DNA of 64,000 nt from an uncultured Thermoleophilia bacterium (GCA_963715985.1 CAVQSP010000009.1:96001-160000), one strand, 5' to 3'; counted from the stretch's first letter, positions 25,623 to 62,888 are shown. The notes: generated by a model not told the origin, from the sequence alone. Made by a program: numbers and translations.

Positions 25623-27056
25623 CTATCGCTCCAGAAGGCGCGCCAGCTTCGTGTCGACGTCGGGGGGGAGCGGCATCGGCCGATGATCCTCGAGGAGCTG
25701 CCGGACCTTGGCGTTCACCCGATCGCGCATCGTGAGGGACCCGCCCTTCGCCCAGCTGCCGTGGTTCTGCCGATCCTCCAGCTCGGGCGACCAAGCCGAG
25801 CGGCAGTGTGTCGACGTGTGCTTGTGGCTCAGGAACGTCCCGCCGGGTCCGACGTCGTGCGTCACGCCGACGGCAAGCGATTCCTCGTCCACGCGGATGC
25901 CGCCGAGCAGGTGGGCGCACTTGCCGATCATCTCGTTCGTGAACACCAGCTGCTCGAACGAGGACGTCATGCCGCCCTCGATGAAGCCCACGTCGTGCGC
26001 CAGGTTGGAGCCCGAGAGCGCCGCCATCATCACCCAGGTCGCCGCGTCGGCGGCCGCCTGCTCATCGAAGCACTTGGCGTCCGTGCAGCCGGCGTAGCCC
26101 CAGGCCGGCAGATCGTAGTACTCCGCCAGCTCCGAGATCGCAGCCATGGTCAGCATGAACTCCGGTGATCCGTAGCTCGAGATAGACGTGCGCATGTCCA
26201 GCGTCAGGATGCCGCCGCCCGAGACGACCGGCGTGCCCTTCCTCTTCAACTGGGCGATCAGTATCCCGGCCAGGGACTCGGCGTTGGCGAGCGCCAGGCC
26301 GCCCGCCGGCGTGACCGGCCCCGTGCCTCCGCTGAGCATCCCGGACATGAAGATGCACGGGATGCCGTGCTCCGCGCAGAACAGCAACTTCTGCATGTCG
26401 TCGGGAGCGAAGCCGAGGGGCGACACAGGCTCGATGTACATGATCGCGAAGGGCCGCTGCCGGAAGGCGTCCTCTCCGCCGGCGACGGCGCCCGCCATCT
26501 CGAGCAGCCTGCCCGCGGCCGCCACATCCAGTGCCGTGTAGACGAGGGGTTTGGTGGAGTTGCGCATCATCGCCGCGAAGTGGTGCAGTTCGGCAGTCTC
26601 GGCCGCCACGTCTGAGGCGATGCCCATGCACATGAGGAAGTCGATGTTCGGCAGGGCGTCACCGACGCGGGCAAAACCGGCGACGTCGGCCAGCAGCGGT
26701 CGACGGCGCTCGCCCGTGTACGGATCGATCACGTTGGGTGTGTCGGAACCGGTGCCGAAGTAGGTGCGGCGCCGGCCCACGTGCATGGCCTCCGCACCGT
26801 TGCGGTCGTAGATCGTGATGCTGCTCGGACTGGACCTCACAGCCCAGTCGATGAGATGCGCCGGGATCCGGACGAGCCCACCGGCACCCACGTGCGCGCC
26901 GGCGTCTGCCAGCAGGGCGGTGGCTTCGTCGCTGTAGACACGTACTCCGGTCTGCCGGAGTATGCGCATGCTGGCGTCATGGATATCGTCCAGCTGACTG
27001 CGCGAGAGGATGCGGAAGCCCACGGTTTCCAGGGGCGCTGATCCGGTGGTGATCAT
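25623..27056 (-). CDS. Non-pyrrolysine MttB-superfamily (trimethylamine methyltransferase family) protein
   Basis: FGTGSD, EPVSPL, GGTGPVT.AG, NAE.LAG, LDMRT...YGSPE, GYAGCTDAK (Cys at the Pyl-equivalent site), HDVG, VGPGGTFL. Confidence 0.88.
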   Translation of the reverse strand: MITTGSAPLETVGFRILSRSQLDDIHDASMRILRQTGVRVYSDEATALLADAGAHVGAGGLVRIPAHLIDWAVRSSPSSITIYDRNGAEAMHVGRRRTYFGTGSDTPNVIDPYTGERRRPLLADVAGFARVGDALPNIDFLMCMGIASDVAAETAELHHFAAMMRNSTKPLVYTALDVAAAGRLLEMAGAVAGGEDAFRQRPFAIMYIEPVSPLGFAPDDMQKLLFCAEHGIPCIFMSGMLSGGTGPVTPAGGLALANAESLAGILIAQLKRKGTPVVSGGGILTLDMRTSISSYGSPEFMLTMAAISELAEYYDLPAWGYAGCTDAKCFDEQAAADAATWVMMAALSGSNLAHDVGFIEGGMTSSFEQLVFTNEMIGKCAHLLGGIRVDEESLAVGVTHDVGPGGTFLSHKHTSTHCRSAWSPELEDRQNHGSWAKGGSLTMRDRVNAKVRQLLEDHRPMPLPPDVDTKLARLLER

Positions 27057-28564
27057 GGTGAGTCCCTCCGAGACGTCGGCGGTGCAGGTACACGAGTGGA
27101 ATCCAGCAGCGTCAGCAGGTCCGGCGCGTCGTCGATGCCCATCTGGCGAGCGGTCTCCGCGACCACCTCGCCGGCCTGGGCGAGCAAGCCCCGCTCGAGC
27201 CCCACCGGCTCCTGAGCCAGCGCCTCTGCGACCTTGCGGCGCGCGCGCTCCAGCATGCTCTCTCCCGCGCTCCAGCTCTCTTGCGTGCCGCGGAACGAGA
27301 GCCTGCTCTGCACCTTCTCGGTGCGAAGGTACTCGCGCGTCTGGCGGAGCCCCAGGAACCCGGCTCCGGAGAGCGCTCCGCGCTGCATCTCGGCGACGTC
27401 GAGCACAGTCTCGTCCGCCGGCCGCTCCTCGAGCGACCAGCGGATCCAGCGCGAGATCTCGTCGTCGATGACGAGCATCTCCAGCGAGCCTCCCACCGCC
27501 GCCTGCATGAGGCCCATGCCCGAGACGAAATCCGGGCGCGCGATCGAGGCCAGCAGCGCGCCGATGGCCCGCTCGAACCCACACTGCACGTCGATCACCC
27601 TGCTGTCGCTGGACAGTCCGTACACATCGCAGCGCATGCCGTACCGATGGGCGAGGATCGTTGCCGCCTGGGCTGTGGAACCGATCTCGGGCCCGCCCAT
27701 GAGGGCCTGGCCGGTACGAGAGTCGCAGGGCATGAGCCTGGAGCCGTAGGTGACGGGGGTCCCCGGCCTTGCCGCCTGGGCGACGACAAGGCCGCACAGC
27801 GCTTCCGCGGTCTGCTGTGCGAGCGCGGCCGCGAGGGGCGCCGGGGCGGTCGTACCGGCGAGAGGGCACGGCAGCACGGTGCAGGCGGCGCCGAGCCGGG
27901 CGGCCTCGACGAGCGCCTCCGCCGGTCCGGCGCCGAAGCTGAGCGGCGACAGCGGGGAGAACGCCAGGCTGATGGCGTAGCGATCCTGAGCGACGTCGCC
28001 GCCCACTGCGTCCTGAGCAAGCCGGCAGAGGCCTCGGACCTGGGCGACAGACCACAGCCCCGGCCCACTGATGCACTTGTCGGTCTGCGCCAGGCAGGCG
28101 ACGTAGCTGACGAGCGGCTCGAGGTCGCCCGGAAGCCCGCTGGGTCCGAAGAGCGGCAGCACCAGGTCGGGGTGCTCGCAGTGGTGCTGCACGCGCACCG
28201 CCGCGGACACGTCGGCGAGCGTTGCGGGACGCTGCTCGCCGGTATCGGGATCGACGACTGACGGCGCTCCCGCGAGCGGATGCGTGCGCGGCGCCGTGCC
28301 GCCCTCACCCACGACCAGCGAGCGGGCGTCGTCCCGCGCGACGAGCGTGAAGGTCCGAGGGGCGGCCGCCGACGCCTTCTCCACGACCTCCCAGGGGATC
28401 GTGACGCGCCCGCCGTCGGACTCGGTGCACCCATACTCGACCATGAGGTCTCGCACGGCCTCCGACTGGACGGCCATCCCCACCGTGCTCAGGAGATCTC
28501 GAGTCGCGCGCTCTATCGCGTCGATCGCCGATCCCGGCCAGAGACTCACTTCACGCCTGTCCAC
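27053..28564 (-). CDS. Non-pyrrolysine MttB-superfamily protein
   Basis: SPLSPL, AGTTAP, AE.LCG, PGTPV.YG, GGPE, YGLSSDSR (Ser at the Pyl site), LVIDDEI. AAGGAG RBS. Confidence 0.85.
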   Translation of the reverse strand: MDRREVSLWPGSAIDAIERATRDLLSTVGMAVQSEAVRDLMVEYGCTESDGGRVTIPWEVVEKASAAAPRTFTLVARDDARSLVVGEGGTAPRTHPLAGAPSVVDPDTGEQRPATLADVSAAVRVQHHCEHPDLVLPLFGPSGLPGDLEPLVSYVACLAQTDKCISGPGLWSVAQVRGLCRLAQDAVGGDVAQDRYAISLAFSPLSPLSFGAGPAEALVEAARLGAACTVLPCPLAGTTAPAPLAAALAQQTAEALCGLVVAQAARPGTPVTYGSRLMPCDSRTGQALMGGPEIGSTAQAATILAHRYGMRCDVYGLSSDSRVIDVQCGFERAIGALLASIARPDFVSGMGLMQAAVGGSLEMLVIDDEISRWIRWSLEERPADETVLDVAEMQRGALSGAGFLGLRQTREYLRTEKVQSRLSFRGTQESWSAGESMLERARRKVAEALAQEPVGLERGLLAQAGEVVAETARQMGIDDAPDLLTLLDSTRVPAPPTSRRDSP

Positions 28565-45405: not shown

Positions 45406-45488
45406 GCTCTGAAACTTCCCAGCGACACCGTTCAGAGGGCGACCGTTCGGGCGCCCGTTTGCGGCAGAAGGGCAGGTTCGTCAGCAGT

Positions 45489-46028
45489 ATGAGCGCACCT
45501 AACGGCACCCTTGTCTCCGAGATCCGCACGGCCACCGGCATCAACGCGGCCACCTGTTACCAGTGCGGCAAGTGCTCGGCCGGTTGTCCCATGGCGTCCG
45601 AGTCAGACCTGCGCCCGCACAACGTCATGCGTCTCGTCGTGCAGGACCGTCGCGAGCAGGCGCTCCACGACGAGTCCATCTGGCTCTGCCTCACCTGCGA
45701 GACGTGTTCCGCGCGCTGCCCCAACGCCTGCGACCCGGCGCGCGTCATCGACCAGCTACGGGAGATGAGCATCGAGGCCGGCGCCGCCGACATGCCGCGC
45801 ACCATCGGCGCCTTCCACAGAGCCTTCCTCGACCAGATCCGCAACAACGGCCGTCTCCACGAGTTCGGCATGGTCATGGAGTACAAGCTGCGCAGCGGCG
45901 AACTCATGAAGGACGCCGCCAGCGCGCCGGCCATGATCCAGCGCGGCAAGCTCAGCTTTCGCGCCGAGCGCATCGAGGGCATGTCCGAGATCAAACGCAT
46001 CTTCGCGATGTGCGGGGTGACCCCGTGA
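45489..46028 (+). CDS. hdrC: Heterodisulfide reductase subunit C
   Basis: CYQCGKCSAGCP, WLCLTCETCSARCP, GRLHE. Confidence 0.9.
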   Translation: MSAPNGTLVSEIRTATGINAATCYQCGKCSAGCPMASESDLRPHNVMRLVVQDRREQALHDESIWLCLTCETCSARCPNACDPARVIDQLREMSIEAGAADMPRTIGAFHRAFLDQIRNNGRLHEFGMVMEYKLRSGELMKDAASAPAMIQRGKLSFRAERIEGMSEIKRIFAMCGVTP

Positions 46029-47137
46029 ATGGCCTCCGTAGTCAAACTATCGAGCGGGGCACCGAAGGAGCACCTCTCCGCGCTGCAAGCGCCACGGTGC
46101 GCGCCGCCAACGACTACGCCTACTACCCCGGCTGCTCCCTGCACGGCACCTCGCGCGAGTTCGACGAAAGCCTGCGCGCCGTGGCCGCCGAACTGAGGGT
46201 GGGCCTCACCGAGGTCACGGACTGGTCCTGCTGCGGCGCCAGCAGCGGGCACACCACCGACCACCTCCTCGGCGTGGCGCTGCCCGCCCGCAACCTGGCG
46301 CTGGCCGAGTCTCAGGGCTTCTCCTCCGTGCTCGCGCCCTGCGCCGCCTGCTACAACCGCCTCTCCGCGGCGCGTCTGGCCGTCGCTGAGGAAGAAGGAC
46401 TGGCGGAGCGCATCCCCGACATCCTCGGGCGCCCCTTCGCCAACACGGTGGAGGTACACAACGCCGTCGAGCTCCTGCGCGACGCCGCCTCGGACATCGA
46501 GGAGAAGCTCGCCGCCGCCCTGACCACCAGGCCCAACCCCATGGAGGGCGTCAAGCTGGCCAGCTACTACGGCTGCCTGCTCGTCCGCCCCTTCGAGGTC
46601 TGCGGCTACGACGACCCGGAGCAGCCCACGTCCATGGACGACGTGGTGCGCGCCTGCGGCGCCGAGCCTGTGGACTGGGACATGAAGGTCGAGTGCTGCG
46701 GCGGCTCCTTCAGCGTCAGCCGTACCGCCTCGGTGCTTCGCCTCGGACGCTCCATCATCGAGAACGCCCGCGCCCACGGCGCCGAGGCCATCGTGGTGGC
46801 GTGCCCGCTGTGCCACTCCAACCTCGACCTGCGCCAGAAGGCGGCGGTCGACCGCGGCGCTGCGCCCATGCCCATCCTGTTCATCACGCAGGTCGCAGGC
46901 CTCGCGCTGCGGCTCTCGCCGGTGGAGCTCGGCCTCACCCGCCACTTCGTGGACACCGAGCCCTTCCTGGCCGATCTGCTCGCCCGCGCCAACGTGCGCG
47001 TGGAAGAGGAGAAGAAGCTGCAGGCCGAGGCGGCCGCCAAGGCGGCCGCCCGCGCCGAGAAGCAGAAGGTCGCCGCTGCCGCCGCCGGGACCGGCGTGCG
47101 CGTCGAGCGATGCCCCCGAGCCGGCGGAAGGTGGTGA
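46025..47137 (+). CDS. hdrB: Heterodisulfide reductase subunit B
   Basis: YYPGC, DWSCCG, PCAAC, YYGCLL.RP, ECCG, ACPLC. Confidence 0.9.
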   Translation: MNGLRSQTIERGTEGAPLRAASATVRAANDYAYYPGCSLHGTSREFDESLRAVAAELRVGLTEVTDWSCCGASSGHTTDHLLGVALPARNLALAESQGFSSVLAPCAACYNRLSAARLAVAEEEGLAERIPDILGRPFANTVEVHNAVELLRDAASDIEEKLAAALTTRPNPMEGVKLASYYGCLLVRPFEVCGYDDPEQPTSMDDVVRACGAEPVDWDMKVECCGGSFSVSRTASVLRLGRSIIENARAHGAEAIVVACPLCHSNLDLRQKAAVDRGAAPMPILFITQVAGLALRLSPVELGLTRHFVDTEPFLADLLARANVRVEEEKKLQAEAAAKAAARAEKQKVAAAAAGTGVRVERCPRAGGRW

Positions 47138-47143
47138 GGCTCA

Positions 47144-49171
47144 GTGAGCCGCATCGGCGTCTTCGTCTGTCACTGCGGCGAGAACATCGCCCGCACCGTC
47201 GACTGCGCCGCGGTCGCGGAGGCCCTCAAGGACCACCCCGGCGTGGCCCACGCCGAGGACTACAAGTACATGTGCTCGGACCCGGGCCAGGCCCTCGTCA
47301 AGAAGGCCATCGAGGAGAACCACCTCACCGGCGTCGTCATCGCCGCGTGCTCGCCGCACATGCATGAGAAGACCTTCCGCCGCGCCTGCGACCAGGCGGG
47401 GCTCAACAAGTTCATGTGCGAGATGGCCAACGTCCGCGAGCACTGCTCGTGGATCCACGAGGACCGTGGCGAAGCCACGGCCAAGGCCATCGACATCGGC
47501 CGCACCATCATCGAGAAGGTCAAGCACAACAAGCCGCTCGAGGTCATCAAGATCCCCGTCACCAAGCGCGCCATGGTCATCGGCGGCGGCATCGCCGGCA
47601 TCCAGGCGGCGCTGGACATCGCCGACGGCGGCCACGAGGTCATCATCGTGGAGAAGGAGGCGTCGATCGGCGGCCATATGAGCCAGCTGAGCGAGACCTT
47701 CCCCACCCTGGACTGCTCCCAGTGCATCCTCACCCCGCGCATGGTGGAGGCGTACCAGCACCCCAACATCAAGCTGTACACCTGGAGCGAGGTCGAGAAG
47801 GTCGACGGCTACATCGGCAACTTCGAGGTCACGGTGCGCAAGAAGGCGCGCAGCGTCAACGAGGACCTCTGCAACGGCTGCGGCGACTGCTTCGGGGTCT
47901 GCCCGTCCAAGAAGATCCCCAGCGAGTTCGAGGCCGGGCTGGGCAAGCGCACCGCCATCTACGTGCCCTTCCCGCAGGCCGTGCCCAACATCCCCGTGCT
48001 GGACCGCGAGAACTGCACCCTCTTCAAGGGCCGCCGCAAGGGCCTCAAGAAGGAGGCCTGCGGCAACTGCAAAGAGGCGTGCCTCAAAGGCGCCATCGAC
48101 TACGACACCGAGGACACCTTCGTGACCGAGCAGATCGGGGCCATCGTGGTCGCGACCGGCTACAAGCTCTACGACATCGGTCGCGACCAGCCCGAGGGCC
48201 TCAAGGGCTACGGCGAGTACGGGTACGGCGAGGTGCCGGACGTCATCGACGGCCTGCAGTTCGAGCGCCTGGCCTCGGCCAGCGGGCCGACGGCGGGCGC
48301 CATCCTCAGGCCGTCCGACGGCACGGAGCCCAAGACGGTGGTCTTCGTCCATTGCGTGGGCTCCCGCGACCCGGAGAAGGGCATGGAGTACTGCAGCAAG
48401 ATCTGCTGCATGTACAACGCCAAGCACGCCATGCTCTACAAGCACAAGGTGCACGACGGCCGCGCCGTGGCCTTCTACATGGACATCCGCGCCAACGGCA
48501 AGGGCTACGACGAGTTCAGTCGGCGCGCCATCGAGGAGGACGGCGCCGAGTACGTCCGCGGCCGCGTGAGCCGCATCTTCCGCGACGGCGACAAGGTCAA
48601 GGTGTGGGGCTACGACACCCTGGCCGGCGAGCAGGTCGTCATCGACGCCGACATGGTCGTGCTGGCCACCGCCATGCGCCCCAACGACGGCGTGCGCGAG
48701 CTCGCCCAGAAGCTCAGCGTGAGCGTCGACGCGCATGGCTTCATCAACGAGGCGCACCCCAAGCTGCGCCCCGTGGAGACCAACACCGCCGGGGTCTTCG
48801 TGGCCGGCGCCTGCCAGTCGCCGCGCGACATCCCGGACGCGGTGGCCATGGCGAGCGCCACCAGCGCCAAGGTGCTGGGCCTCTTCAGCGCCGACGAGCT
48901 CGAGCGCGAGCCCGCCGTGGCCGTCGTCAGCGAGCAGACCTGCATCGGTTGCATGCGCTGCGCCCTCGTGTGCCCCTACGGCGCCATCGAGCAGCGCGAC
49001 ATCTGCACCGTGGACGGCCAGGTGTGCGGCCACACCGCCTACGTGAACCCGGGCGTGTGTCAGGGCTGCGGCACCTGCGAGGCGGTGTGCCTGAGCAACA
49101 GCGTCGAGCTGCAGACGTTCACCGACGAGCAGGTCTACAGCGAGATCAACGCGCTCTGCGCGTGGGAGTGA
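47144..49171 (+). CDS. hdrA: Heterodisulfide reductase subunit A
   Basis: RIGVFVCHCG, AACSP, ANVREHCSW, GGGIAG, TFPTLDCSQCILTP, CVGSRD, YCSKICC, two ferredoxin domains. Confidence 0.95.
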   Translation: MSRIGVFVCHCGENIARTVDCAAVAEALKDHPGVAHAEDYKYMCSDPGQALVKKAIEENHLTGVVIAACSPHMHEKTFRRACDQAGLNKFMCEMANVREHCSWIHEDRGEATAKAIDIGRTIIEKVKHNKPLEVIKIPVTKRAMVIGGGIAGIQAALDIADGGHEVIIVEKEASIGGHMSQLSETFPTLDCSQCILTPRMVEAYQHPNIKLYTWSEVEKVDGYIGNFEVTVRKKARSVNEDLCNGCGDCFGVCPSKKIPSEFEAGLGKRTAIYVPFPQAVPNIPVLDRENCTLFKGRRKGLKKEACGNCKEACLKGAIDYDTEDTFVTEQIGAIVVATGYKLYDIGRDQPEGLKGYGEYGYGEVPDVIDGLQFERLASASGPTAGAILRPSDGTEPKTVVFVHCVGSRDPEKGMEYCSKICCMYNAKHAMLYKHKVHDGRAVAFYMDIRANGKGYDEFSRRAIEEDGAEYVRGRVSRIFRDGDKVKVWGYDTLAGEQVVIDADMVVLATAMRPNDGVRELAQKLSVSVDAHGFINEAHPKLRPVETNTAGVFVAGACQSPRDIPDAVAMASATSAKVLGLFSADELEREPAVAVVSEQTCIGCMRCALVCPYGAIEQRDICTVDGQVCGHTAYVNPGVCQGCGTCEAVCLSNSVELQTFTDEQVYSEINALCAWE

Positions 49172-49178
49172 GAGAACC

Positions 49179-49679
49179 GTGAGCGACACACACGCCGACT
49201 TCGAGCCCCGCATCACGGCCTTCGTCTGCAACTGGTGCACCTACACCGGCGCCGACCTGGCCGGCACGAGCCGCCTGCACATGGCGAGCAACGTGCGCCT
49301 CATCCGCCTGCCCTGCACCGGACGCATCGACCCCCTCTTCATCATCAAGGCGTTCGAGCGCGGCGCCGACGGCGTCATCGTCAGCGGCTGCCATCCCGCC
49401 GACTGCCACTACACCTCGGGCAACTACCACGCGCGGCGCCGCTTCGCGGTGTTCCACGACTTCCTCGAGTTCATCGGCGTCGACCCCCGCCGCATCACCT
49501 TCAGCTGGGTGTCCGCCAGCGAGGGCGCCAAGTGGCGCGACGTGGTGGACGAGACCGTCGCCAACGTCGTGGCATTGGGCCCGTACGACGAGTACAGGGC
49601 GCTGGCGCCGGAGGCCGTCGAGCCGTGGCCCGGCGCTTTGCAGCCGGAGCCGGCCGTGGCCGCAGGGGAGGCCTCATGA
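49179..49679 (+). CDS. flxD: MvhD-like [2Fe-2S] subunit (FlxD)
   Basis: FVCNWCTY.GADLAG, PCTGRID, GCHPADCHY..GN, WVSASEG. Confidence 0.88.
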   Translation: MSDTHADFEPRITAFVCNWCTYTGADLAGTSRLHMASNVRLIRLPCTGRIDPLFIIKAFERGADGVIVSGCHPADCHYTSGNYHARRRFAVFHDFLEFIGVDPRRITFSWVSASEGAKWRDVVDETVANVVALGPYDEYRALAPEAVEPWPGALQPEPAVAAGEAS

Positions 49680-50608
49680 GCGACGCGACCACCGCCACCA
49701 TGGCCGAGGCCCCCGTGTACACCGGCGTGGACGACCTGCGCCGCATCGCCCGCGAGCTGCTCGAGGCCGGCGACGTGCGCGTCATCATCGGCTGGGAGCA
49801 CGCACGCCGCGGCGCGCGGCCGGTGTTCATCGCCGACCCGGCCGAGGCCGACAAGCTCATCTTCGACACGCGCTGCGTGCACAACCTCGTCACCTACCTC
49901 AACCCGCGCCGCGACCACGTCACGGAGCTGGGCAAGATCGGGCTCGTCGTCAAGGGCTGCGACGTGAAGGCGGTCGCGGGCCTGCTGCGCGAGCAGCAGA
50001 TCGACCGCGACCACGTCGTGCTCATCGGGGTCAAGTGCGGCGGCGTGCTCGAGGAGAACGAGCTGCCCGCCGCCGTCGCCCTCTCGCCCGAGAACGTGGC
50101 GCCGCGGTGCTACGGCTGCGACAACCGCGAGCCCACCCTGGTCGATCACCTGGTGGGCGAGTCGCAGCCCGAGCCGCCGCGCCCGGTCATGACCATCGAC
50201 GAGCGCGTCGCCATCCTCGACGAGAAGCCCCTCGAGGAGCGCTGGGCCTTCTGGACCGAGCAGTTCAGCAAGTGCGTGCGCTGCTACGCCTGCCGCCAGG
50301 TGTGCCCCCTCTGCATCTGTGAGCGCTGCATCGTCGAGAAGACGCAGCCGCAGTGGATAGAGCCGTCGGCGCACCCCCGCGGCAACATGAGCTGGAACAT
50401 CACCCGCGCCGTCCACCTGGCCGGCCGCTGCGTCGATTGCGGCGAGTGCGAGCGCTTCTGCCCGGTGGGCATCCCGCTCAGTCTCGTCAACCGCAAGCTG
50501 CAGCAGATCGTCCACGACCGCTACGACTACGTCGTGGCCGAGGACCCGGAGAAGCCGGCGCCCATCGGCGACTATCGTCTCGACGACCAGCAGGAGTTCA
50601 TCAAGTGA
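49676..50608 (+). CDS. flxC: Flx Fe-S subunit C
   Basis: KGCD, KCVRCYACRQVCPLC.C, HLAGRCVDCGECERFCP; position within hdrCBA-flxDCBA. Confidence 0.75.
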   Translation: MSDATTATMAEAPVYTGVDDLRRIARELLEAGDVRVIIGWEHARRGARPVFIADPAEADKLIFDTRCVHNLVTYLNPRRDHVTELGKIGLVVKGCDVKAVAGLLREQQIDRDHVVLIGVKCGGVLEENELPAAVALSPENVAPRCYGCDNREPTLVDHLVGESQPEPPRPVMTIDERVAILDEKPLEERWAFWTEQFSKCVRCYACRQVCPLCICERCIVEKTQPQWIEPSAHPRGNMSWNITRAVHLAGRCVDCGECERFCPVGIPLSLVNRKLQQIVHDRYDYVVAEDPEKPAPIGDYRLDDQQEFIK

Positions 50609-51735
50609 GCGATCGCTACTTCATCAGCACCGAAGACCTGCGTGGCCTCGCCGGCGACCTGATCGCCGCAGGCACCGAAGTGATCGCGCCCGTCGCCGTC
50701 GACATCTGCCAGTCGCCGGCCGCCTTCGCCGCCTCCGCGTGCAGGCTGCCGGGCACGACGGCCGTCGACGTCGACTACCGCATGCTCGGCGACGCGGCCG
50801 AGCTGGACCTCAGCCGCGGCCTCCCGGAGCTCTCGCTCAAGGGCTACTTCCTGCCCGAGCACGAGGCGCTCTGCCGCTGGAGGCAGAAGGGCACCACCGT
50901 CGAGGTCCAGGAGGTGCCCACCGAGTTCGCTCCGCGGGTCGTGCTCGCGGCCAAGCCCTGCGACGCCGCCGCCCTGGTCGTGGTCGACCAGGTCATGAAC
51001 TGGGACTACGAGGACGAGCTGTGGAACGGCCGCCGCGCGGCCACCACCGTCATCAACCTCTCCTGCCCGGTCATCGACGACAGCTGTTTCTGCACCGCGG
51101 TCGGCGCCGCTCCCGACGACACCAAGGGCGCCGACGGCCTGCTCACGCAAGTCGAGGGCGGCTACGTCCTCGAGGTCACCACCGACAAGGGGCGCGCCCT
51201 GGCCGAGGCCCACAAGGCGCGCCTCAGCACGGACGTCCCCGCCGACACCCTCGGGCGGCAGGCCGACGACGAGCGCTCCGCGGCTCGCGCTCGCGTGGCC
51301 GCCAACCTCGAGATCGACGCCGGCTCCGTGCGCGACTGGATCGCCACCCACTTCGAAGATCCGCTGCTGGCCATGCTCGCCGTCCGCTGCAACGGCTGCG
51401 GCGCCTGCACCAGCGTGTGCCCCACCTGCCACTGCTTCGACATCGTCGATGAAGAAGAGGGCGTCGGCCGCGGCACCCGGCGTCGCTGCTGGGACACCTG
51501 CCAGGCGCCCACGTTCACGCTGCACGCCAGCGGCCACAACCCGCGCGACAACCAGCACGTGCGGTACCGGCAGCGCATCAACCACAAGTTCTCCATCTAC
51601 CCGCTCAAGTTCGGCGAGGTCCTCTGCACCGGCTGCGGGCGCTGCACGCGCGTGTGCCACGCCGGCCAGGACCTCGTGGAGATCCTTGCGCACATCGACA
51701 TCGCGGCGCGACGGCCCGCGGAGGCGGCATCATGA
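50605..51735 (+). CDS. flxB: Flx Fe-S subunit B (AsrA/sulfhydrogenase beta-like)
   Basis: KPCD, CFC, CNGCGACTSVCPTCHCF, R.WDTC, HKF, CTGCGRC. Confidence 0.8.
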   Translation: MSDRYFISTEDLRGLAGDLIAAGTEVIAPVAVDICQSPAAFAASACRLPGTTAVDVDYRMLGDAAELDLSRGLPELSLKGYFLPEHEALCRWRQKGTTVEVQEVPTEFAPRVVLAAKPCDAAALVVVDQVMNWDYEDELWNGRRAATTVINLSCPVIDDSCFCTAVGAAPDDTKGADGLLTQVEGGYVLEVTTDKGRALAEAHKARLSTDVPADTLGRQADDERSAARARVAANLEIDAGSVRDWIATHFEDPLLAMLAVRCNGCGACTSVCPTCHCFDIVDEEEGVGRGTRRRCWDTCQAPTFTLHASGHNPRDNQHVRYRQRINHKFSIYPLKFGEVLCTGCGRCTRVCHAGQDLVEILAHIDIAARRPAEAAS

Positions 51736-52563
51736 ACATCTACCAGCCGCAGCTCGCCACCGTCACCGAGCTGATCGACGAGACTCCCGACACGCGCACC
51801 CTGCGCCTGGAGTTCCAGGACGAGGCGCTGCGCTCGTCCTTCGAGTTCAAGGCCGGCCAGTTCGGCGAGTACAGCATCTTCGGCGCCGGCGAGAGTACGT
51901 TCTGCATCGCCAGCTCACCCACGCGCGAGGGCTACATCGAGTGCAGCTTCAAGGCCGTGGGCAAGGTCACCTCGGCCCTGCGCGAGGCCAATATCGGCGA
52001 CATCGTGGGCTTCCGCGGCCCGTACGGCAACTGGTTCCCGGTGGACGACTGGAAGGGCAAGGACGTGGTCTTCGTGGCCGGCGGCATCGGCCTCGCCGCC
52101 GGTGCGCTGCGTCATCTGGAACGTGCTCGATCGCCGCGACGAGTTCGGCGACGTCACCATCGTCTACGGCGCGCGCAGCGTGAGTGACCTCGTGTACAAG
52201 CGCGAGCTGGAGGAGTGGGGCTCGCGCACCGACGTCAAGATGGTCACCACCGTCGACCCCGGCGGCCAGACCGAGGACTGGACCGGCGATGTGGGCTACG
52301 TCACGCCGGTCGTCGAGAAGACGGCGCCCAAGGCCGACAACGCGGTCGCCGTGCTCTGCGGCCCGCCCATCGTGGTCAAGCTCACGCTGCCGGTGCTGGA
52401 GCAGCTCGGCTTCGCCGAGGACGCCATCTTCACCACGCTCGAGAACCGCATGAAGTGCGGGATCGGCAAGTGCGGCCGCTGCAACATCGGGCCCGTGTAC
52501 GTGTGCAAGGACGGGCCGGTCTTCACCGCCGCACAGATGAAAGAGCTGCCGCCGGAGTTCTGA
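51732..52563 (+). CDS. flxA: Flx FAD/NAD(P)H-binding subunit A (AsrB-like; frameshift near 52100)
   Basis: GQF, RGPYGN, AGGIGLA, YGAR, CGPP, LENRMKCGIGKCGRC...VCKDGPVF. Confidence 0.85.
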
Positions 52564-55998: not shown

Positions 55999-56565
55999 TC
56001 AGCCCGCGATCGATTGCTTTCGGATCGTGGCCAGCTCGGCGGCCACGTCCAGCCGATCCGCCCATTCGTCGAGGTAGTCCTCGTCCAGTATCCCTGCCTG
56101 CAGCTCATAGACGCGCAGGGCGTCGTTCAGCTGCTTCTCGCTCCCGCCCGCCTGTGCCGACCAGCGGAGCTTCATGAGGATCGTGTCCTCTGGCGTGCAG
56201 ACGCTGATGCGCAGGCCGAGCGCGTCGACGAGTACGCGCCGTGCGAACCGTTCACGGTCAAACGGCTCGTCGGTCAGTAGCCAGAAGTCCGCTTTGTCTC
56301 CTGATGCGGAGTCGATGAGGTTGAACATGGCGTGGCGGCGTGTGGCCTCCTCGACGGCGCGCTCGTCGAGGTAGACGTGCGGGCCGGACAGGGCCCGCGT
56401 CACTCGCCCCACATCGGTCGCCGAGACGTCGACGACCAGGTCGATGTCGTGGGTGGCCCTTGGTTCACCCTGGAGGCTCGATGCCAGCGACCCGGTCAGC
56501 ATGTAGGGCACGCCGGCCTCGTCCAAGGCCTCGACGATGCGCTTCAGGAGGGCCTGTTGTGACAT
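55999..56565 (-). CDS. Nucleotidyltransferase-fold protein, MenT1/Rv0078A-like putative toxin
   Basis: TGS.A...GEPRAT.DIDLVV, EDTILMKL, KQLNDA. Confidence 0.7.
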   Translation of the reverse strand: MSQQALLKRIVEALDEAGVPYMLTGSLASSLQGEPRATHDIDLVVDVSATDVGRVTRALSGPHVYLDERAVEEATRRHAMFNLIDSASGDKADFWLLTDEPFDRERFARRVLVDALGLRISVCTPEDTILMKLRWSAQAGGSEKQLNDALRVYELQAGILDEDYLDEWADRLDVAAELATIRKQSIAG

Positions 56566-56759
56566 GCAGACAGCCGCTCCAGGTAGATGCGCTCCAGCTC
56601 AGCCTCGTCGGCCTCTGGAAAGCGTCGCTTCAAGCCCGCGCGGAAGAGCTCGCGCGAGAGTTCCGTGAGCTCGAAGGCCTTGAGGAGGCGCTGCTCCGGC
56701 GTGAGCCGGCGGAGCGCCTCGAGGTAGAGCTGGTGGTTCGGCCGCGGCTTGGGGTCCAC
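56544..56759 (-). CDS. Small helical protein, MenA1/Rv0078B-like putative antitoxin
   Basis: LRRLTPEQRL..AFEL...RAGLKRRFPEADEAEL; overlaps the start of the downstream NTase. Confidence 0.6.
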   Translation of the reverse strand: MDPKPRPNHQLYLEALRRLTPEQRLLKAFELTELSRELFRAGLKRRFPEADEAELERIYLERLSACHNRPS

Positions 56760-56835
56760 GCGAAGAGGATAGCACCGCGCGCGACCAGCGCGGCCGGGTC
56801 TTTCGTTCAACCGGGCGGCGCCTGATCGGCGGCCG

Positions 56836-58275
56836 TCAGTCGGCCGGTACGATCGCGTTCAGGCGCTCGGTCAGCTCCTCCGGAGCGCCGGCGCCTCGTG
56901 CGTCGCGAGCAGCTCGAGCGCCTTGCGGCGGGCCTTCTCCGTGGCGTCCAGCCCGCCGCCGTCTATCCAGCGGTCGTAGCTGGCGCGGTTGAGCAGCTGG
57001 GCGCGCCACTGGCTGCTGCGCAGGTGGCGCCTGGTGTGCCGCTGGCCGAGGTAGTCGCCGCCGGGGCCGACGGCCTTGAGCACGTCCACGGCCAGCGTCT
57101 CGTCCGAGACCTCGATCTCGGCGAGCAGGCGCCGGTCGCGGGCGATGAACTCGGCCGCCAGCACGACCTCGGCGAGCGAATCCGGAGAGGCCGAAGTCCA
57201 TGTAGCCGACGTCGTGGTTGAGGTTGGCGCCCAGCTGCATGGAGAGCTTGATGAGCTCGTCGGCCTCCATGCCGGCCTGGGCGTCCACGACCTGCGCGTC
57301 GGTGTGGCCGCTGAACCCCCAGTTGGGGATGTCCAGCCACTTGGCCATCTCCACCTCGCAGGCATAGGCGCGCGTGAACTCGGGCGAGTTGTACGACGAC
57401 TGCGACGTCGCCATGTCCAGCGTGTTGGGGCCCTGCCCGATGACGAACGGGCGCTCCGGGGACCCGGAGCTGGTGCATGACGAGGCCGAACAGCGCCTCG
57501 GCCACGCCGAGCGTGATCTGGCCGGCGGTGGTGATCGGGGCGGTGCCGCCGGCGACCGGCGACGGGCAGTAGGTGGACGGGACGCCGTGGTCGGCGCAGA
57601 ACAGCAGCTTGTCCACCGTCTCGAACGGGTGCTTGAGCGGCGTGACGGGCTGGTTGTACATGACGAAGTAGGGCTTCTCGCGCAGCGCCTCGGCGCCGCC
57701 GCGGACCTCGCAGGCCATCCGCCACATGGGCTCCACGGTCTCCACGCCGCCGGCCGTCATCACGAGCGGCTTGGTGGTGGCCGGGATCATGGCGCGGAAC
57801 TGCTTGCGGGTAGGCCTCCCGCGCGTCCATGCCGTCGGGGTAGGCGCCCGACATGACGAAGTCGATGTCGGGCAGGGCGTCGCAGAGACGCGCCGCCTCG
57901 GTGACGTCTTCGAGCTTGCCGAGGCGGCGTTCGCCGGTCTCCAGGTCGTGCAGGTGCATCACGTCGGAGCCGTTGCCGAAGTACGAGCCTCGGCCGCCGA
58001 GGTCCATGGCCGGCTCGCCGTCGCGGTCGTAGACGACGAAGCTCGACGGCACCGACTCGCGCGCCTGCTCGACAAGGGCGGCGCGGGACGTGGACGAGGC
58101 CGTCGCCGTCCTTCGTGCAGCCGCCCTCGAGCATGACCTGCTCGCCCTCCTCGTGGAGGACGACCATGCCGATGTCGGCGAGGATGCCGAGGGCCGTCTC
58201 GTAGATGCGCCGCTTCTGCTCTTCGCTGAGGAAGCTGACGCGGCCGGCGCCGATCTCCTTGCTGCTGTCTGACAT
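56836..58275 (-). CDS. Non-pyrrolysine MttB-superfamily protein (frameshifted)
   Basis: [45 protein letters not shown] (His at the Pyl site), [13 protein letters not shown]. Confidence 0.85.
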
Positions 58276-58291
58276 GGTCGCTCCTCGGGAT

Positions 58292-58350
58292 GGTGGTGCA
58301 AAGGCCAGGCGCCGCCGCCACGGACGGCGCGCCTGGCCGAACACTACACC
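58292..58350 (-). other. Long intergenic stem-loop between Pyl-mttB and the next mttB paralog
   Basis: GGCCAGGCGC/GCGCCTGGCC stem (58303-58312 with 58329-58338), extended by GGTG/CACC; short T run on the minus strand. Confidence 0.5.
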
Positions 58351-58360
58351 GTCCGGCGGC

Positions 58361-59836
58361 CTAGTGCACGTCCAATTCGCGTTCTGCGGCATCGATAATC
58401 GACTTAAGTTCTGCCGCGACCGCGTCCGGGCAGCGGCTCCGGCCGGTGCGTCTCGAGGATGCGCCGGGCCTCGGCGAGGGCGCGGTCGTAGAGCGTCGTC
58501 GACCCGTCGGCGGCCCACTCCTCGCGGACCCGGCGGTCGATGAGACCTGCTCCGCGACTGGTCGCGCATGCCTTTGTACGTGTCGTCGTGGGCGAGGAAG
58601 TCGTTGAACGGCCCGATCTCGGCGATGACGTCCACGGCGAGCGTCTCGTCGCTCACCGGGATGCCCGGCACGCAGTACTTGACCATGCGCGCGAACTCCG
58701 CGTCCATGACCAGCTGCGCGTAGTCGATGGTGACGCCCGATTCCAGCATCCCCAGCCCGTAGATCAGGTTGGCCCCTGCCAACGCCGGCAGCAGGCTGGT
58801 GATCGTCTTCTCGTGTCCGGATTGGGCGTCCGACACTTTGGAGTCGCCCTACGCACCGGCGACCCAGCTGGGCAGCAGGTAGTAGCGCGCCAGGCAGGCC
58901 ACGCCGGCGCCGATCATGCCGCACTCGGGGCTGCCCACCGAGGCGCTGGCGAAGCGCAGGTCCAGAGCCGTGGTGGACGAGCCGTAGATGACCGGGCGTG
59001 CCGCGCTCCGTGAGCTGCGCCAGCGTGATGCCGCTGAGCACCTCGGCGTTGTGGCCGACCAGCGTGCCGGCCAGGCTCACCGGCGACGACCCGCCGGCCA
59101 TGGCCATGGAGAGCACGTTGACGGGGATGCCGGCGCGGGCGCCCTCGATGATGATGCGGCAGACGTCGGCGACCAGCTTGAGCGGGCTCACCGGGCAGGT
59201 GAGGAACGAGAGGATGGGGCGGCGGCGGAGCTCGTCGTGCCCGCCGGCGATGGCCGCCGCCATGTCGATCATCTTGCGCGCGCAGAAGCCCGTGAGCGGG
59301 CCGATGGTGGCGTGCTTCGTGGTGTTGCTGAAGATGGCCTCGGCGTTGTGCAGCGCCGCCGTGTCCTGCGGCGACGTCGTGGGCGCCCAGCGGCCGCTCC
59401 ACCACGTCGATCTCGGGCAGCGCGTCGATGATCCTGCGTGCAGTCGGCGACGTCCTGCTTGCGCGACTCGTGCAGCTCGCCGGTGTACGGGTCGACGACC
59501 TGGATGCCCTCGCCGAAGTTGGTGAAGCCGACGCGGCCGTCCTCAAGGACGACGTCCCGGGCCGGGTCGCGCCCGCACATCACGACCTTGGGCGGCGCCG
59601 AGCGGATCGCGTCCTCCACGAGGTGCGCCGGGATGCGCACCACGCCGCGTCTCGCGATCGACCTCGGCGCCGGCCGCCGGCGAAGATCTCCTGCGCCTCC
59701 GCGTCCTCCACGAAGACACCGGTGCGCGCCAGTACCTCCAGCGTCGCGAGATGGATCTCGTGAGCTCGTCGTCGGTGAACACCTCGAGCCTGAAGCCGCC
59801 GCTCTTGCGCGCTCCTGCGCGCGGGTTACGGATCAT
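58361..59836 (-). CDS. mttB: Trimethylamine:corrinoid methyltransferase, pyrrolysine-containing (in-frame TAG at 58849-58851; several frameshifts)
   Basis: [93 protein letters not shown], matching the Pyl context of methanogen MttB. Confidence 0.92.
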
Positions 59837-59839
59837 CGG

Positions 59840-61236
59840 TCAGCCTCCCGCCGTGCGTTCCTTGAACTTCTCGACGCTGTTGATGGGCACGTCCAGCACG
59901 CGCGCGATGTTGAACTTGGCCTCGATCTGGTTGGCCTGCCAGGGCTGGCTGATGGCGTAGCTGTGGACGCGCCCGAACCCGTGCTCGTTGCGCACGTCGG
60001 TCATCACGACCGGGTCCGAGAGGTCGAACGGCGTGACGCCGAGCTTGTCGGCCACGTACTGCTTGGCTTCCGTGAGGCGCATGCCCCGAGTCATCTGCAT
60101 ACGGGCAACCAGGTCTCCGCCTGCCCGAATACCGCCGATGCTCGCCGCCTGCGCGTGCGCGTTGTGCATGCCGTGCGGGTCGCCCGAGCCGACCTACAAG
60201 CCGTCCACGTGCAGCAGCTCGACGAACGACTTGGCCGCCCGGCAGACGGCGTCCGAGGGCAGGTGCACGAACATCGGCACGCCGCCGACGCCCATGCCGG
60301 CGTTGGGGTGCACGGGGATCTCGGCGACCTCCATGCAGGGCTTGATGAGGGCGATGGCGCGGGCCATGTTCCAGGCCAGCGACTTGCCGGTGTTGACGTT
60401 GACGACGGGCCCGAACATGGTGGCGCCGGCCTTCTGCGCGAGCAGCAGCTGGTCCTTGGGCCACAGCCCGGCGAGGCGCACGCCCTCCCACTCGAGCTGG
60501 CCGTGCATGCCGAGCACGAACTCGCCGGCCATGCCCAGCTGCACGCCCATGTCGGGGTACTTCTCGCGGATGATCTTCGTGGCGCGCAGCGCGGCCAGGA
60601 ACTCGGGGTCGCCGGAGGCGCCGGTGGTGTCCCAGTCGATGGCGTCGGCGCCGGCCTCCCACTGCGAGTCGGCGAGGTTGACCATGTCGACGACGGCCAT
60701 CTCGACGGCCTCTTCGGCGGCCGCCCGCGCCTCGGCGATCTTGCCCAGCGGCAAGCAGCTCGTTCCAGTTGTCGCAGGGCCCGTCGGGCTTGGAGTAGAG
60801 GCCCAGGTTGGGCATCACGCCGTACTGCAGCGGGGCGATGGTGCAGAGCTGCGCGTCGTGCATGTACTGGGCCTCGTAGGCGAGGATGGTGCGCACCACC
60901 TTGAGCGAGTAGTCGCCGACGCAGAGCTCGAGCAGGTCGGCGCCCATCCACTGCTCGTAGGACTGCAGGTCCTGGATGCGCGTGGCGTGCGTCTTCATGC
61001 CCCGTGCCGTCGCAGCTGAGGACGATCTCCTCGCCGACGTCGACGCCGATGAAGCGCAGCGGCGAGGCGTAGATGTCGAGCAGGTGGTCGATCTCGTCGT
61101 CGGTGAGCGGCGCCACCTTGGCGCGCTTCACGGCCGCCGCCACGCCCGCCTCGAGATCGGCGCGGATCTCGCTGCGCGTCAGCCGCGCAAAGGTGCCGTC
61201 GCCCATGCGGGTCGGCACCCTGGCCTCGTTCGTCAC
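59840..61236 (-). CDS. mtbB: Dimethylamine:corrinoid methyltransferase, pyrrolysine-containing (in-frame TAG at 60194-60196; frameshifts near 61000 and 60755)
   Basis: RMGDG, MPNLGLY..PDGP, DTTGASGD, GMAGEFVLGMHG, GMGVGGVPM, VDGL-TAG-VGSGDP.GM..AH...GIRAGGDLVARMQ...EAK.YVA.KLGV, AK.NI...L...INS. Confidence 0.93.
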
Positions 61237-61279
61237 GTCGTCCTCCCCGTTCAGGCGACCGGCGCGGTCGGGCCATCGA

Positions 61280-61299
61280 CTAATCGACCGGTCAATTAG
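61280..61299. promoter_or_regulatory. 20-bp near-perfect palindrome, probably an operator, between divergent methyltransferase units
   Basis: CTAATCGACCGGTCAATTAG (one mismatched pair), AT-rich relative to its context. Confidence 0.65.
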
Positions 61300-61430
61300 C
61301 TGATAGACAGTCCACACCAGCGCACGCGGCGATGTCAAGAGCGGCCGGGCGCTGGCGTCGCACGGGTATCATCGCGCCGTGCGCGCAGTGCGGCGGCAGA
61401 AGCGAAGACGGAGACGGAAGAAGGCGGCGG

Positions 61431-62888
61431 ATGAGAGCGCACACGACCTGGCTGAGCGAGGCCGAGAAGAGCAGGATCGTCGACGCAGGCGATGGAGCCT
61501 GCTCGGGAACGTGGGCATGCGCTTCGCCGGCTCGAGCGTGCTGCCCCTGCTGGCGGAGCGCGGGGCGGACGTGGACGAGGCCACCGGGCTCGTCCGTCTT
61601 CCCCGCGAGCTCGTGGAGTGGGCGGTCGGCCAGTGCCCCCGCCGGATCGTCATGGCCGGCCTCGACGGAGGCGGACGACGTGCGTGCTGGACGAGGGCGA
61701 GCCCTTCCACTTCGCGCCCAGCGGCTGCGTCGCGAAGACGCTCGACTTCCGCAGCGGGCGAGCGCCGCGCCAGCACGCTGCAGGACGTGCGCGAGTGCAC
61801 GGCCCTCAACGACGAGCTGCCCGAGCTCGACATCATGTGGACGCAGGTGAGCGCATCCGACGTGCCGCTGGAGGCACGCGAGCTCACCGAGTACTTCACG
61901 CTGCTCACCGAGACGCGCAAGCACGTGACCTTCGTCGACTGCCCTACGGAGGTCGACGCGGTCGTGCGGCTCTGCGAGGCCCTGGCGGGCGACCTGGAGC
62001 GCTTCCGCGCCCGCCCGCGCATCTCCACCGTGGTCACCGCGGCGTCGCCGCTGCAGGTGGACGGCGGCATCCTCGACGTGCACGTGGCGCTGGCGCGGCA
62101 CGGCGTGCCCGTCAAGATCTACTCGATGGCCATCGCCGGGGCGACGGCGCCGGTGACGCTGGCCGGCACGGTGGTGCAGGGTCTCGCCGAGTTCCTCGGC
62201 GTCGCCACGGCGCTGCAGGTGGCGGCGCCCGGGCGCGCGCCTCGTCTTCTGCTTCGGCTCGGGCGTGCTCGACATGCGCCAGACGACGTTCGCGCTGGGC
62301 TGCGTGGAGGCGCGCTGATGGCGGCCATGGCCACCGAGGTCGGCCACCACGTCGGCGTGCCGACCCTCAGCCCCGGCTTCTCGACCGACGCCCGGCACGT
62401 CGCCCTGCAGGACGGCTACGAGAAGGCGATGAAGGCGGCGACAGTGTGCGCCGCCAACCCGGACGTCGTCACCGGCTGGGGGCTCGTGGACTCGCACAAC
62501 ACGATGTCGCTGCCGCAGTCGGTCATCGACAACGAGATGGCCGGCATGCTGCAGGCGGCTGAACCGGCCGGTCGAGGTCTCCGACGCCACGCTCGCCGCC
62601 GAGGCCTTCGACGCCGTCGGGCCGGGCGGCGGGTTCCTCGGCCGCAAGGAGACGGCCAAGCGCATCCGCGCCGGCGAGCACTACCTGCCGACCCTCTCGA
62701 GCCGGCTCTCCTACGAGAAGTGGGTGGAGCAGGGCGCGACGGAGTACGACGAGGCCTGCGCGCGCGTGGAGGCGCTGCTGGCCGCGCACGCCTCAAGGAG
62801 CCGTACATCGACGGCGCGCTGCTGGACGAGATCGCGGCCATCTGCCGCGTGGACGACGACGCCGTGCGCCGAGCACGGCGCGAAGTGA
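61431..62888 (+). CDS. Non-pyrrolysine MttB-superfamily protein (frameshifted)
   Basis: HFAPSGC, TAASPL, AIAGATAPVTLAGT, LDMR, SPGFSTDAR (Ser at the Pyl site), GYEKA, VIDNE, VGPGGGFL. Confidence 0.82.

Follow-up and report, generated by a model that had tools for sequence, protein, structure and literature searches.

Four genes of the corrinoid methyltransferase families lie within ∼6.1 kb, at 56.8-62.9 kb, of a 64,000-nucleotide stretch (the window; C9:96001-160000, CAVQSP010000009.1 of assembly GCA_963715985.1) from the metagenome-assembled genome (MAG) of an uncultured Thermoleophilia bacterium. Two of these genes are most probably a genuine pyrrolysine (Pyl)-type pair, mtbB and mttB, flanked on either side by a non-Pyl paralog of the MttB superfamily, and the frame breaks in the window's copy of the cluster are most likely assembly errors. 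Positions below are counted from the first letter of the window unless a contig is named.

As the initial annotation had proposed, the adjacent mtbB and mttB genes each carry a TAG at the Pyl position, and this is borne out by the alignment to a solved structure, by the counts over alignment columns, by matches to the Rfam PYLIS models and by conservation among orthologs. The mttB TAG is residue 49 of the frame piece at window:58552-58995 and aligns to residue 334 (printed X) of 7xcl_A, the MttB of Methanosarcina barkeri. A search of solved structures with MtbB gave no match, so that an active site comparison had no template. The coding signal and the family matches carry on in the same frame past the TAG. 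The models PYLIS_3 and PYLIS_2 matched the sequence following the two UAG codons, position 1 of each model falling on the T of the TAG, and scored over gathering in 20 of the 20 paralogous loci tested (21 exist; L099 was left out). Since these models largely represent coding conservation, they confirm the position and are no demonstration of an insertion signal. Two weak Rfam matches, CRISPR-DR23 and sR-tMet, were below gathering and were taken as chance.

The placement of TAG was then compared across the genome by tblastn, using its own intact paralogs as queries. The Pyl column is spanned by 55 loci of the MttB family, and in 10 of them it holds a stop, always TAG; the nine loci most closely related to the true-MttB query are among these 10, and the remaining 45 carry ordinary residues. 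In mtbB, the TAG of each of the 11 loci falls in a single shared column, while in the mtmB family the best two of seven loci carry one TAG each. The genome thus holds 23 TAG-bearing loci (10 mttB, 11 mtbB and 2 mtmB), with the codon at or within the expected place, and 21 of these paralogs are diverged, at 43-90% identity to the queries. Furthermore, matches were obtained in 53 genomes, and the 11 best-scoring orthologous clusters of congeners all retain both TAGs. These results show that the placement of TAG at the Pyl column is beyond chance. One close paralog of true MttB, C3:63073-64479, has Leu (GGLGDSK) in place of the TAG and is 54.5% identical to the neighboring TAG-bearing C3:61572; judged by sequence, Leu has here replaced Pyl naturally within the Pyl clade. 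TAG is missing from five loci of the MtmB family (C11:185068, C11:311481, C3:48518, C14:103360 and C14:620367-621708), and a corrinoid-protein gene adjoins most of them.

Profile searches support the identities of the four genes. The three pieces of mtbB scored 400.7 (the 324-codon piece), 81.5 and 58 bits against PF09505 (cut-off 25), and the 324-codon piece reached 313.8 bits against TIGR02368 (cut-off 369.1), a model that the intact ortholog L065 passes full-length with 414.7 bits. The pieces of mttB match PF06253, and the 148-codon piece scored 256.8 bits over positions 266-412 of TIGR02369 (cut-off 525); the intact ortholog L065, at 89% nucleotide identity, scored 739.6 bits over positions 1-469. 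That a non-Pyl MttB paralog lies on both sides, another proposal of the initial annotation, agrees with the residues found at the Pyl column, His in the downstream paralog (gene 1) and Ser in the divergently transcribed one (gene 4). The intact ortholog of gene 1 remained under the TIGR02369 cut-off at 325.6 bits, and gene 4 matched PF06253 in two frames with 133.1 and 41.2 bits. Insertions near 61486 and 61498 leave the true start of gene 4 uncertain.

Table 1. Coordinates of the methyltransferase cluster, its pyrrolysine-related elements and associated genes
Feature	Position	Strand	Details
Gene 1, non-Pyl MttB-superfamily paralog	58275 to 56871	-	PF06253 on three pieces
mttB, trimethylamine:corrinoid methyltransferase	59836 (ATG) to 58361	-	Terminator also TAG, 58363-58361; at least 6 frame pieces
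mtbB, dimethylamine:corrinoid methyltransferase	61236 (GTG) or 61206 (ATG) to 59840	-	Stop TGA 59842-59840; three frame pieces
Gene 4, non-Pyl MttB-superfamily paralog	61409 (start at or before 61517) to ∼62795	+	PF06253; diverges from mtbB
mttB Pyl TAG	58851-58849	-	Context WVAGA-TAG-GDSK
mtbB Pyl TAG	60196-60194	-	Context VDGL-TAG-VGSGDP
Rfam PYLIS_3 match	58851-58752	-	100 nucleotides from mttB UAG; 73.4 bits (gathering 38); E = 4.3e-14
Rfam PYLIS_2 match	60196-60097	-	100 nucleotides from mtbB UAG; 60.1 bits (gathering 36); E = 5.6e-13
Predicted hairpin 3' of mttB UAG	58761-58792	-	∼+59 to +88 nucleotides from the U of UAG; core TTGGC-AGGG-GCCAA
HdrC-HdrB-HdrA-MvhD row, then two Fe-S proteins and FAD/NAD-binding oxidoreductase	45480-52560	+	
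pylB	C13:551949-552972		Two adjoining frame pieces, 303.8 and 125.8 bits; each alone under cut-off 348.2
pylC	C13:553005-554252		317.9 bits (cut-off 248.3)
pylD	C13:554249-555055		199.5 bits (cut-off 150.05)
tRNA-Pyl(CUA)	C13:555126-555198		ARAGORN call (cta)
pylSn	C13:556301-556558		TIGR03912, 124.6 bits (cut-off 51.15)
pylSc	C13:559325-560185	opposite to pylSn	∼3 kb from pylSn; TIGR02367, 316.5 bits (cut-off 178.15)

The genes for pyrrolysine synthesis and charging had been expected outside the window, and a search of the genome (a MAG of 4.35 Mb in 22 contigs with 70% G+C, estimated to be 88.8% complete) located pylB, pylC, pylD, tRNA-Pyl(CUA), pylSn and pylSc on contig C13 (Table 1). The pyrrolysyl-tRNA synthetase (PylRS) is split, pylSn and pylSc being separate genes with a corrinoid-protein gene between them. 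The tRNA-Pyl folds to a cloverleaf with a 5-nucleotide D-loop, a short variable region and the anticodon CUA, although its folding energy is not exceptional (z = -1.68); no Rfam match was found in this region at E ≤ 0.01, the support for the tRNA being the ARAGORN call and the fold. The pathway genes predicted to lie elsewhere, namely those for corrinoid proteins, RamA-like activases and acetyl-CoA synthase, were likewise recovered outside the window. There are 24 matches to the corrinoid-protein model TIGR02370 in the genome, at ∼20 loci and with 4 over the cut-off, none of them in the window, as well as two RACo_C_ter matches to RamA/RACo-type activases, an acetyl-CoA synthase (CdhC/ACS) and four Pterin_bind matches, one of which adjoins the ACS gene.

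Each of the four genes in the cluster shifts frame several times, as seen by tblastn and in a sliding frame plot of the G+C content at third codon positions (GC3), and the "in-frame" TAGs therefore sit in pieces of 148 (mttB) and 324 (mtbB) codons. The earlier statement that gene callers split both genes is right as to the split, but its main cause is single-base insertions and not only the TAG. Indels were called by aligning the cluster to three full-length orthologous clusters (L062-L064). We counted 35 window-specific events, comprising 28 extra-base runs (23 of a single base, spread over the 6.1 kb) and 7 missing-base runs, against 1 to 9 events of its own in each ortholog, and the frame steps in tblastn run in the +1 direction. 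When compared with the orthologs, mttB carries 6 extra bases and lacks 1; mtbB has window-specific extra bases near 60753 and 61000, gene 1 has four window-specific single-base insertions, and gene 4 has seven extra and two missing single bases. When the extra bases are ignored, mttB with gene 1 (994 codons) and mtbB (498 codons) are free of TAA and TGA and have TAG exactly at the ortholog's positions, and the synonymous and non-synonymous codon differences to the ortholog number 138/130 and 79/41, respectively. The orthologous clusters are open over their full length (at least 479 codons) in 10 of the 11 best.

An independent check was made with Logan contigs from four wetland and soil short-read runs, in pieces of 145-443 nucleotides. 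These contigs have one base fewer at 57180, 57807, 59435/59437, 60756 and 61002/61003, which are frame-shift sites of the window. The runs holding related sequence come from wetland and peat habitats, the best share of sampled words being 0.27, and 0.06-0.10 in RNA runs. Unrelated genes are broken in the same way, including pylB, ACS, OTCase, a TetR regulator, GGT, two S9 peptidases, an SDR, an ABC ATPase, a solute-binding protein and a 3-hydroxyisobutyrate-dehydrogenase-like gene. Taken together, it is very likely that the frame breaks are an assembly artefact consisting of single-base insertion errors. Homopolymer errors as their cause were considered and rejected, the inserted bases lying mostly outside homopolymer runs. 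Within positions 1-43500 of the window we noted at least eight split genes, among them OTCase (∼4.3-4.5 kb), TetR (∼5.25-5.34 kb), GGT (∼10.8-10.97 kb), the S9 peptidases (∼15.0-15.6 and 29.3-29.4 kb), the SDR (∼16.0-16.2 kb), the ABC ATPase (∼31.1-31.3 kb) and the solute-binding protein (∼35.3-35.5 kb).

Alternatively, the cluster could be an array of pseudogenes in real decay, in a strain that relies on intact paralogs elsewhere such as C4:32137-34934, which we consider unlikely. Such decay would agree with the position of the inserted bases outside long homopolymers, with their local excess (23 single-base insertions in 6.1 kb compared to 2 in the neighboring 7.06 kb) and with the existence of spare copies, since 6 of the 10 Pyl-mttB loci and 8 of the 11 mtbB loci are uninterrupted in the match tables. 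However, runs of extra bases outnumber those of missing bases by 28 to 7, no large deletion was seen in the alignment, TAA and TGA are absent from the 1492 projected codons, and synonymous changes are still frequent. The identity to the orthologs (86-89%) is no lower than that of the intact Hdr region (84-85%), unrelated single-copy genes are broken likewise, and the independent short-read contigs are without the extra base at the five break sites. A uniform error rate fails to explain the insertions either, because they are ∼10 times denser in the cluster; this density fits a poor consensus in a paralog-rich region as well as real decay, and consensus trouble in a family of dozens of paralogs would explain the local excess. 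The conclusion for the organism holds under artefact and decay alike because uninterrupted TAG-bearing copies are present elsewhere in the genome, C4:32137-34934 being one example.

Two further explanations concern the TAG codons and the genome itself. If the TAGs were ordinary stops, the products would be truncated or two-piece MttB and MtbB proteins with no pyrrolysine inserted. TAG is indeed a common terminator, and mttB itself ends in it, but the genome has the complete pyl gene set with tRNA-Pyl(CUA), 21 diverged paralogs and each of the 11 orthologs examined have the TAG exactly at the Pyl column, and the coding signal and family matches persist beyond it, which makes this explanation extremely improbable. 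Hardly more credible is a binning error that would have joined C9, with the methyltransferase cluster, and C13, with the pyl operon, from different organisms. The MAG consists of 22 contigs with an estimated contamination of 7.29%; against this, the G+C contents of C9 and C13 are 0.707 and 0.706, single congener genomes (for example G013, G016, G020, G001 and G024) hold both the orthologous cluster and PylSc, and C13 itself bears TAG-containing mttB/mtbB loci at C13:306720 and C13:312530.

Several points weigh against a functional Pyl-type pair with artefactual breaks. The insertion of Pyl is deduced from genes only, in a genome whose completeness (88.8%) and contamination (7.29%) are estimates. 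No corrinoid protein, activase or methyl-tetrahydrofolate transferase is found beside the mtbB-mttB cluster. One ortholog (L062) is likewise broken, and the tenfold difference in insertion density from the adjacent Hdr region has to be accounted for. The Logan contigs are 88-99% alike to the window and come from relatives rather than from the source sample, whose own reads may differ from them; 40 of their 708 base differences are listed, and although none falls on 58849-58851 or 60194-60196, these sites are not thereby shown to be unchanged.

TAG terminates 398 of 2150 confident coding frames (18.5%) in this genome and is the terminator of mttB in the window and in 5 of the 11 orthologs (L062, L063, L064, L071 and L072). 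UAG therefore has two meanings in the cell, and its decoding must be ambiguous or regulated, with no full reassignment; the Pyl system is probably regulated. The terminator of the window's mttB lies 162 codons past the Pyl TAG. In L063, L064 and L072, the non-Pyl paralog downstream of mttB follows in the same frame with no other intervening stop, and read-through of the terminator would therefore yield a fused double MttB protein in these orthologs. Other congeners, for example L065, L067 and L068, have no second in-frame TAG, and their mttB ends in TGA or TAA.

A predicted hairpin 3' of the mttB UAG is common to the ten TAG-bearing mttB paralogs (L079-L088), with the shared core TTGGC-AGGN-GCCAA in alignment columns 68-97, and it is built partly of the codons TTG and GCA, which are rare in a genome of ∼93% GC3. 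Pairing was found in 97.8% of cells compared to a shuffled mean of 89.0, and 0 of 500 shuffles reached the observed value, in a test that is biased in favor of the hairpin because the nine distinct sequences tested had also served to predict the structure. Compensatory changes on both sides occur in 4 of the 10 pairs, and in slid controls the pairing was at most 51%. In the single non-Pyl paralog with the same ALAGAN peptide (C3:64054; n = 1), 2 of the 5 core pairs are broken. The consensus structure of Rfam PYLIS_3 does not include this hairpin, which sits too far from the UAG to touch the ribosome decoding it. For mtbB, a prediction over the 11 paralogs gave a hairpin overlapping the 3' helix of the PYLIS_2 model.

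The occurrence of the Pyl system in related bacteria was assessed by means of PylSc. Besides the present species, the genus comprises 36 others, and 33 of these have a match over the cut-off. Of 24 genomes that belong to other families of the class, 1 has PylSc, as does 1 of 400 further genomes in an even draw over the whole phylum. Throughout this one genus of uncultured Thermoleophilia, Pyl use is thus a stable trait, and it is rare in the rest of the phylum. The closest PylSc loci among species-representative genomes are 68-79% identical, and 28 of these 33 come from MAGs titled Thermoleophilia; the other five records are titled Actinomycetes (two), Actinomycetota (one), Deltaproteobacteria (one) and, in a truncated record, Thermoleophilia-like (one). 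This accords with the actinobacterial origin first suggested, and the host is an uncultured member of Thermoleophilia, a class of Actinomycetota. Congeners have the entire 6.1-kb cluster at 84-89% nucleotide identity, and all 53 other genomes of the genus give some match to it, many of them to paralogs.

The Hdr region next to the cluster (Table 1) keeps its gene order in three congeners, at 84-85% identity, and looks, from its gene content, like a flavin-based electron-bifurcation module; the oxidoreductase that follows MvhD changes frame near 52.0-52.2 kb. HdrABC-MvhD and ACS would be consistent with an anaerobic, acetogen-like metabolism. However, C13, the contig of the pyl operon, also encodes a haem-copper oxidase subunit I over its full length (536 bits; C13:213624-214964), and in the genus a haem-copper oxidase is present in 40 of 54 genomes and ACS in 41 of 54. 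Strict anaerobiosis is therefore not established: the proposal of anaerobic growth on trimethylamine and dimethylamine stands as far as HdrABC-MvhD and ACS point to anaerobiosis, while the oxidase speaks against it. Immediately downstream of the cluster, at 56002-56834 on the minus strand, two small genes weakly match a nucleotidyltransferase family (27.1 bits) and, slightly below its cut-off at 26 bits, an Rv0078B-related antitoxin, and they may form a toxin-antitoxin-like pair. Two intact non-Pyl MttB-family genes lie elsewhere in the window, at 25626-27017 and 27212-28552, amid genes for peptide uptake and peptidases.

From the genes found and the established chemistry of these enzyme families, we infer the following pathway. 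The insertion of Pyl at the UAG codons of this lineage would depend on the split PylRS, which would charge tRNA(CUA) with Pyl so that UAG is read as this residue. Pyl-MttB would then methylate the Co(I) form of a corrinoid protein from trimethylamine, Pyl-MtbB would carry out the same transfer from dimethylamine, and the two Pyl-MtmB copies encoded elsewhere in the genome would handle monomethylamine. A second methyltransferase would move the methyl group from the methylcorrinoid to tetrahydrofolate, after which the C1 unit could be oxidised or joined to CO by ACS to give acetyl-CoA. Cobalt inactivated by oxidation would be re-reduced by RamA-type proteins.

Because methylamines are precursors of methane, methylamine-consuming bacteria compete with methylotrophic methanogens in wetlands and soils. 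A joint reading of our results, in which the genus is an overlooked and widespread methylamine sink of soils and wetlands that reads UAG ambiguously, is aided by the hairpin and couples Pyl-dependent demethylation to O2 respiration, is rather doubtful as a whole. If true, the 23 TAG-bearing methyltransferase loci would make this one of the largest bacterial pyrrolysine gene sets, and demethylation coupled with oxygen respiration would take pyrrolysine use outside the strict anaerobes. Of specialist interest are the hairpin that follows the mttB UAG and the co-occurrence with a haem-copper oxidase. Automatic counts of mttB, mtbB and mtmB are unreliable for this lineage because gene callers split or drop the genes and, for long-contig MAGs such as this one, single-base insertions add false breaks.

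Pyl use in this phylum has been noted before. One survey (Guo et al., 2022; PMC9630628) counts "two Actinobacteria" with PylRS genes, and another study (Ellenbogen et al., 2023; PMC10805028) reports the expression of Pyl-type mttB and mtbB by Actinobacteriota MAGs from Stordalen Mire, with the genus RBG-16-64-13 being named. The rarity of Pyl in Actinobacteria implied by the initial annotation is thus overstated, as the trait is already in print in these two papers. Our literature search found no paper that treats the Pyl system of this lineage under the class name Thermoleophilia, nor one that links Thermoleophilia with trimethylamine and corrinoid. RBG-16-64-13 is presumably a Thermoleophilia lineage. 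What our results add to a known trait is its genus-wide distribution, the paralog counts, the retained TAG stops and the oxidase, and no new category is involved.

Among characterized systems, the MttB of M. barkeri (Pyl334; 7XCL, 7XCM, 7XCN) shares with the window's gene the family (PF06253/TIGR02369), the UAG at the position aligned with residue 334, the motif VAG-x-Pyl-xD-xKV ... GHEKT and the PYLIS_3 match over the 100 nucleotides after the UAG. In contrast to M. barkeri, the host is a high-GC bacterium, mttC does not adjoin, the window's copy is frame-broken, the expected methyl acceptor would be tetrahydrofolate and not coenzyme M, and the hairpin ∼59-88 nucleotides past the UAG lies outside the Rfam consensus structure. 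Similarly, the Methanosarcina MtbB (PF09505 Dimeth_Pyl, TIGR02368) resembles the mtbB described here in that the ortholog passes the equivalog cut-off over its full length, PYLIS_2 is matched and a single UAG stands in the motif DGL-Pyl-VG-GDP, but here the host is bacterial and the genome has eleven paralogs. In the archaeal MtbB, Pyl is presumably at about residue 356. The flanking MttB-family genes have an ordinary residue at the Pyl column, as does MtgB, the non-Pyl glycine betaine:corrinoid methyltransferase of Desulfitobacterium hafniense (2QNE, 9YCE), although their His and Ser residues and low scores give no substrate assignment.

The closest parallels to the pyl genes are the bacteria with a split PylRS, such as D. 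hafniense, Acetohalobium arabaticum and the deltaproteobacterial symbiont of Olavius (PMC9630628), in which, as here, pylSn and pylSc are separate, pylBCD adjoins pylT, Pyl occurs in methylamine methyltransferases and TAG is kept as a common stop. The present genome differs in belonging to Actinomycetota, in the placement of pylSc, which is encoded on the other strand ∼3 kb away from pylSn and separated from it by a corrinoid-protein gene, and in its very large set of 23 TAG-bearing mtmB/mtbB/mttB loci and 55 MttB-family loci. With the Actinobacteriota MAGs of Stordalen Mire it shares the phylum and the two gene types, and the runs holding related sequence share their kind of habitat (wetland or peat); compared with the accessible part of that report (PMC10805028), our analysis adds the pyl operon, the genus-wide distribution, the paralog counts and the oxidase.

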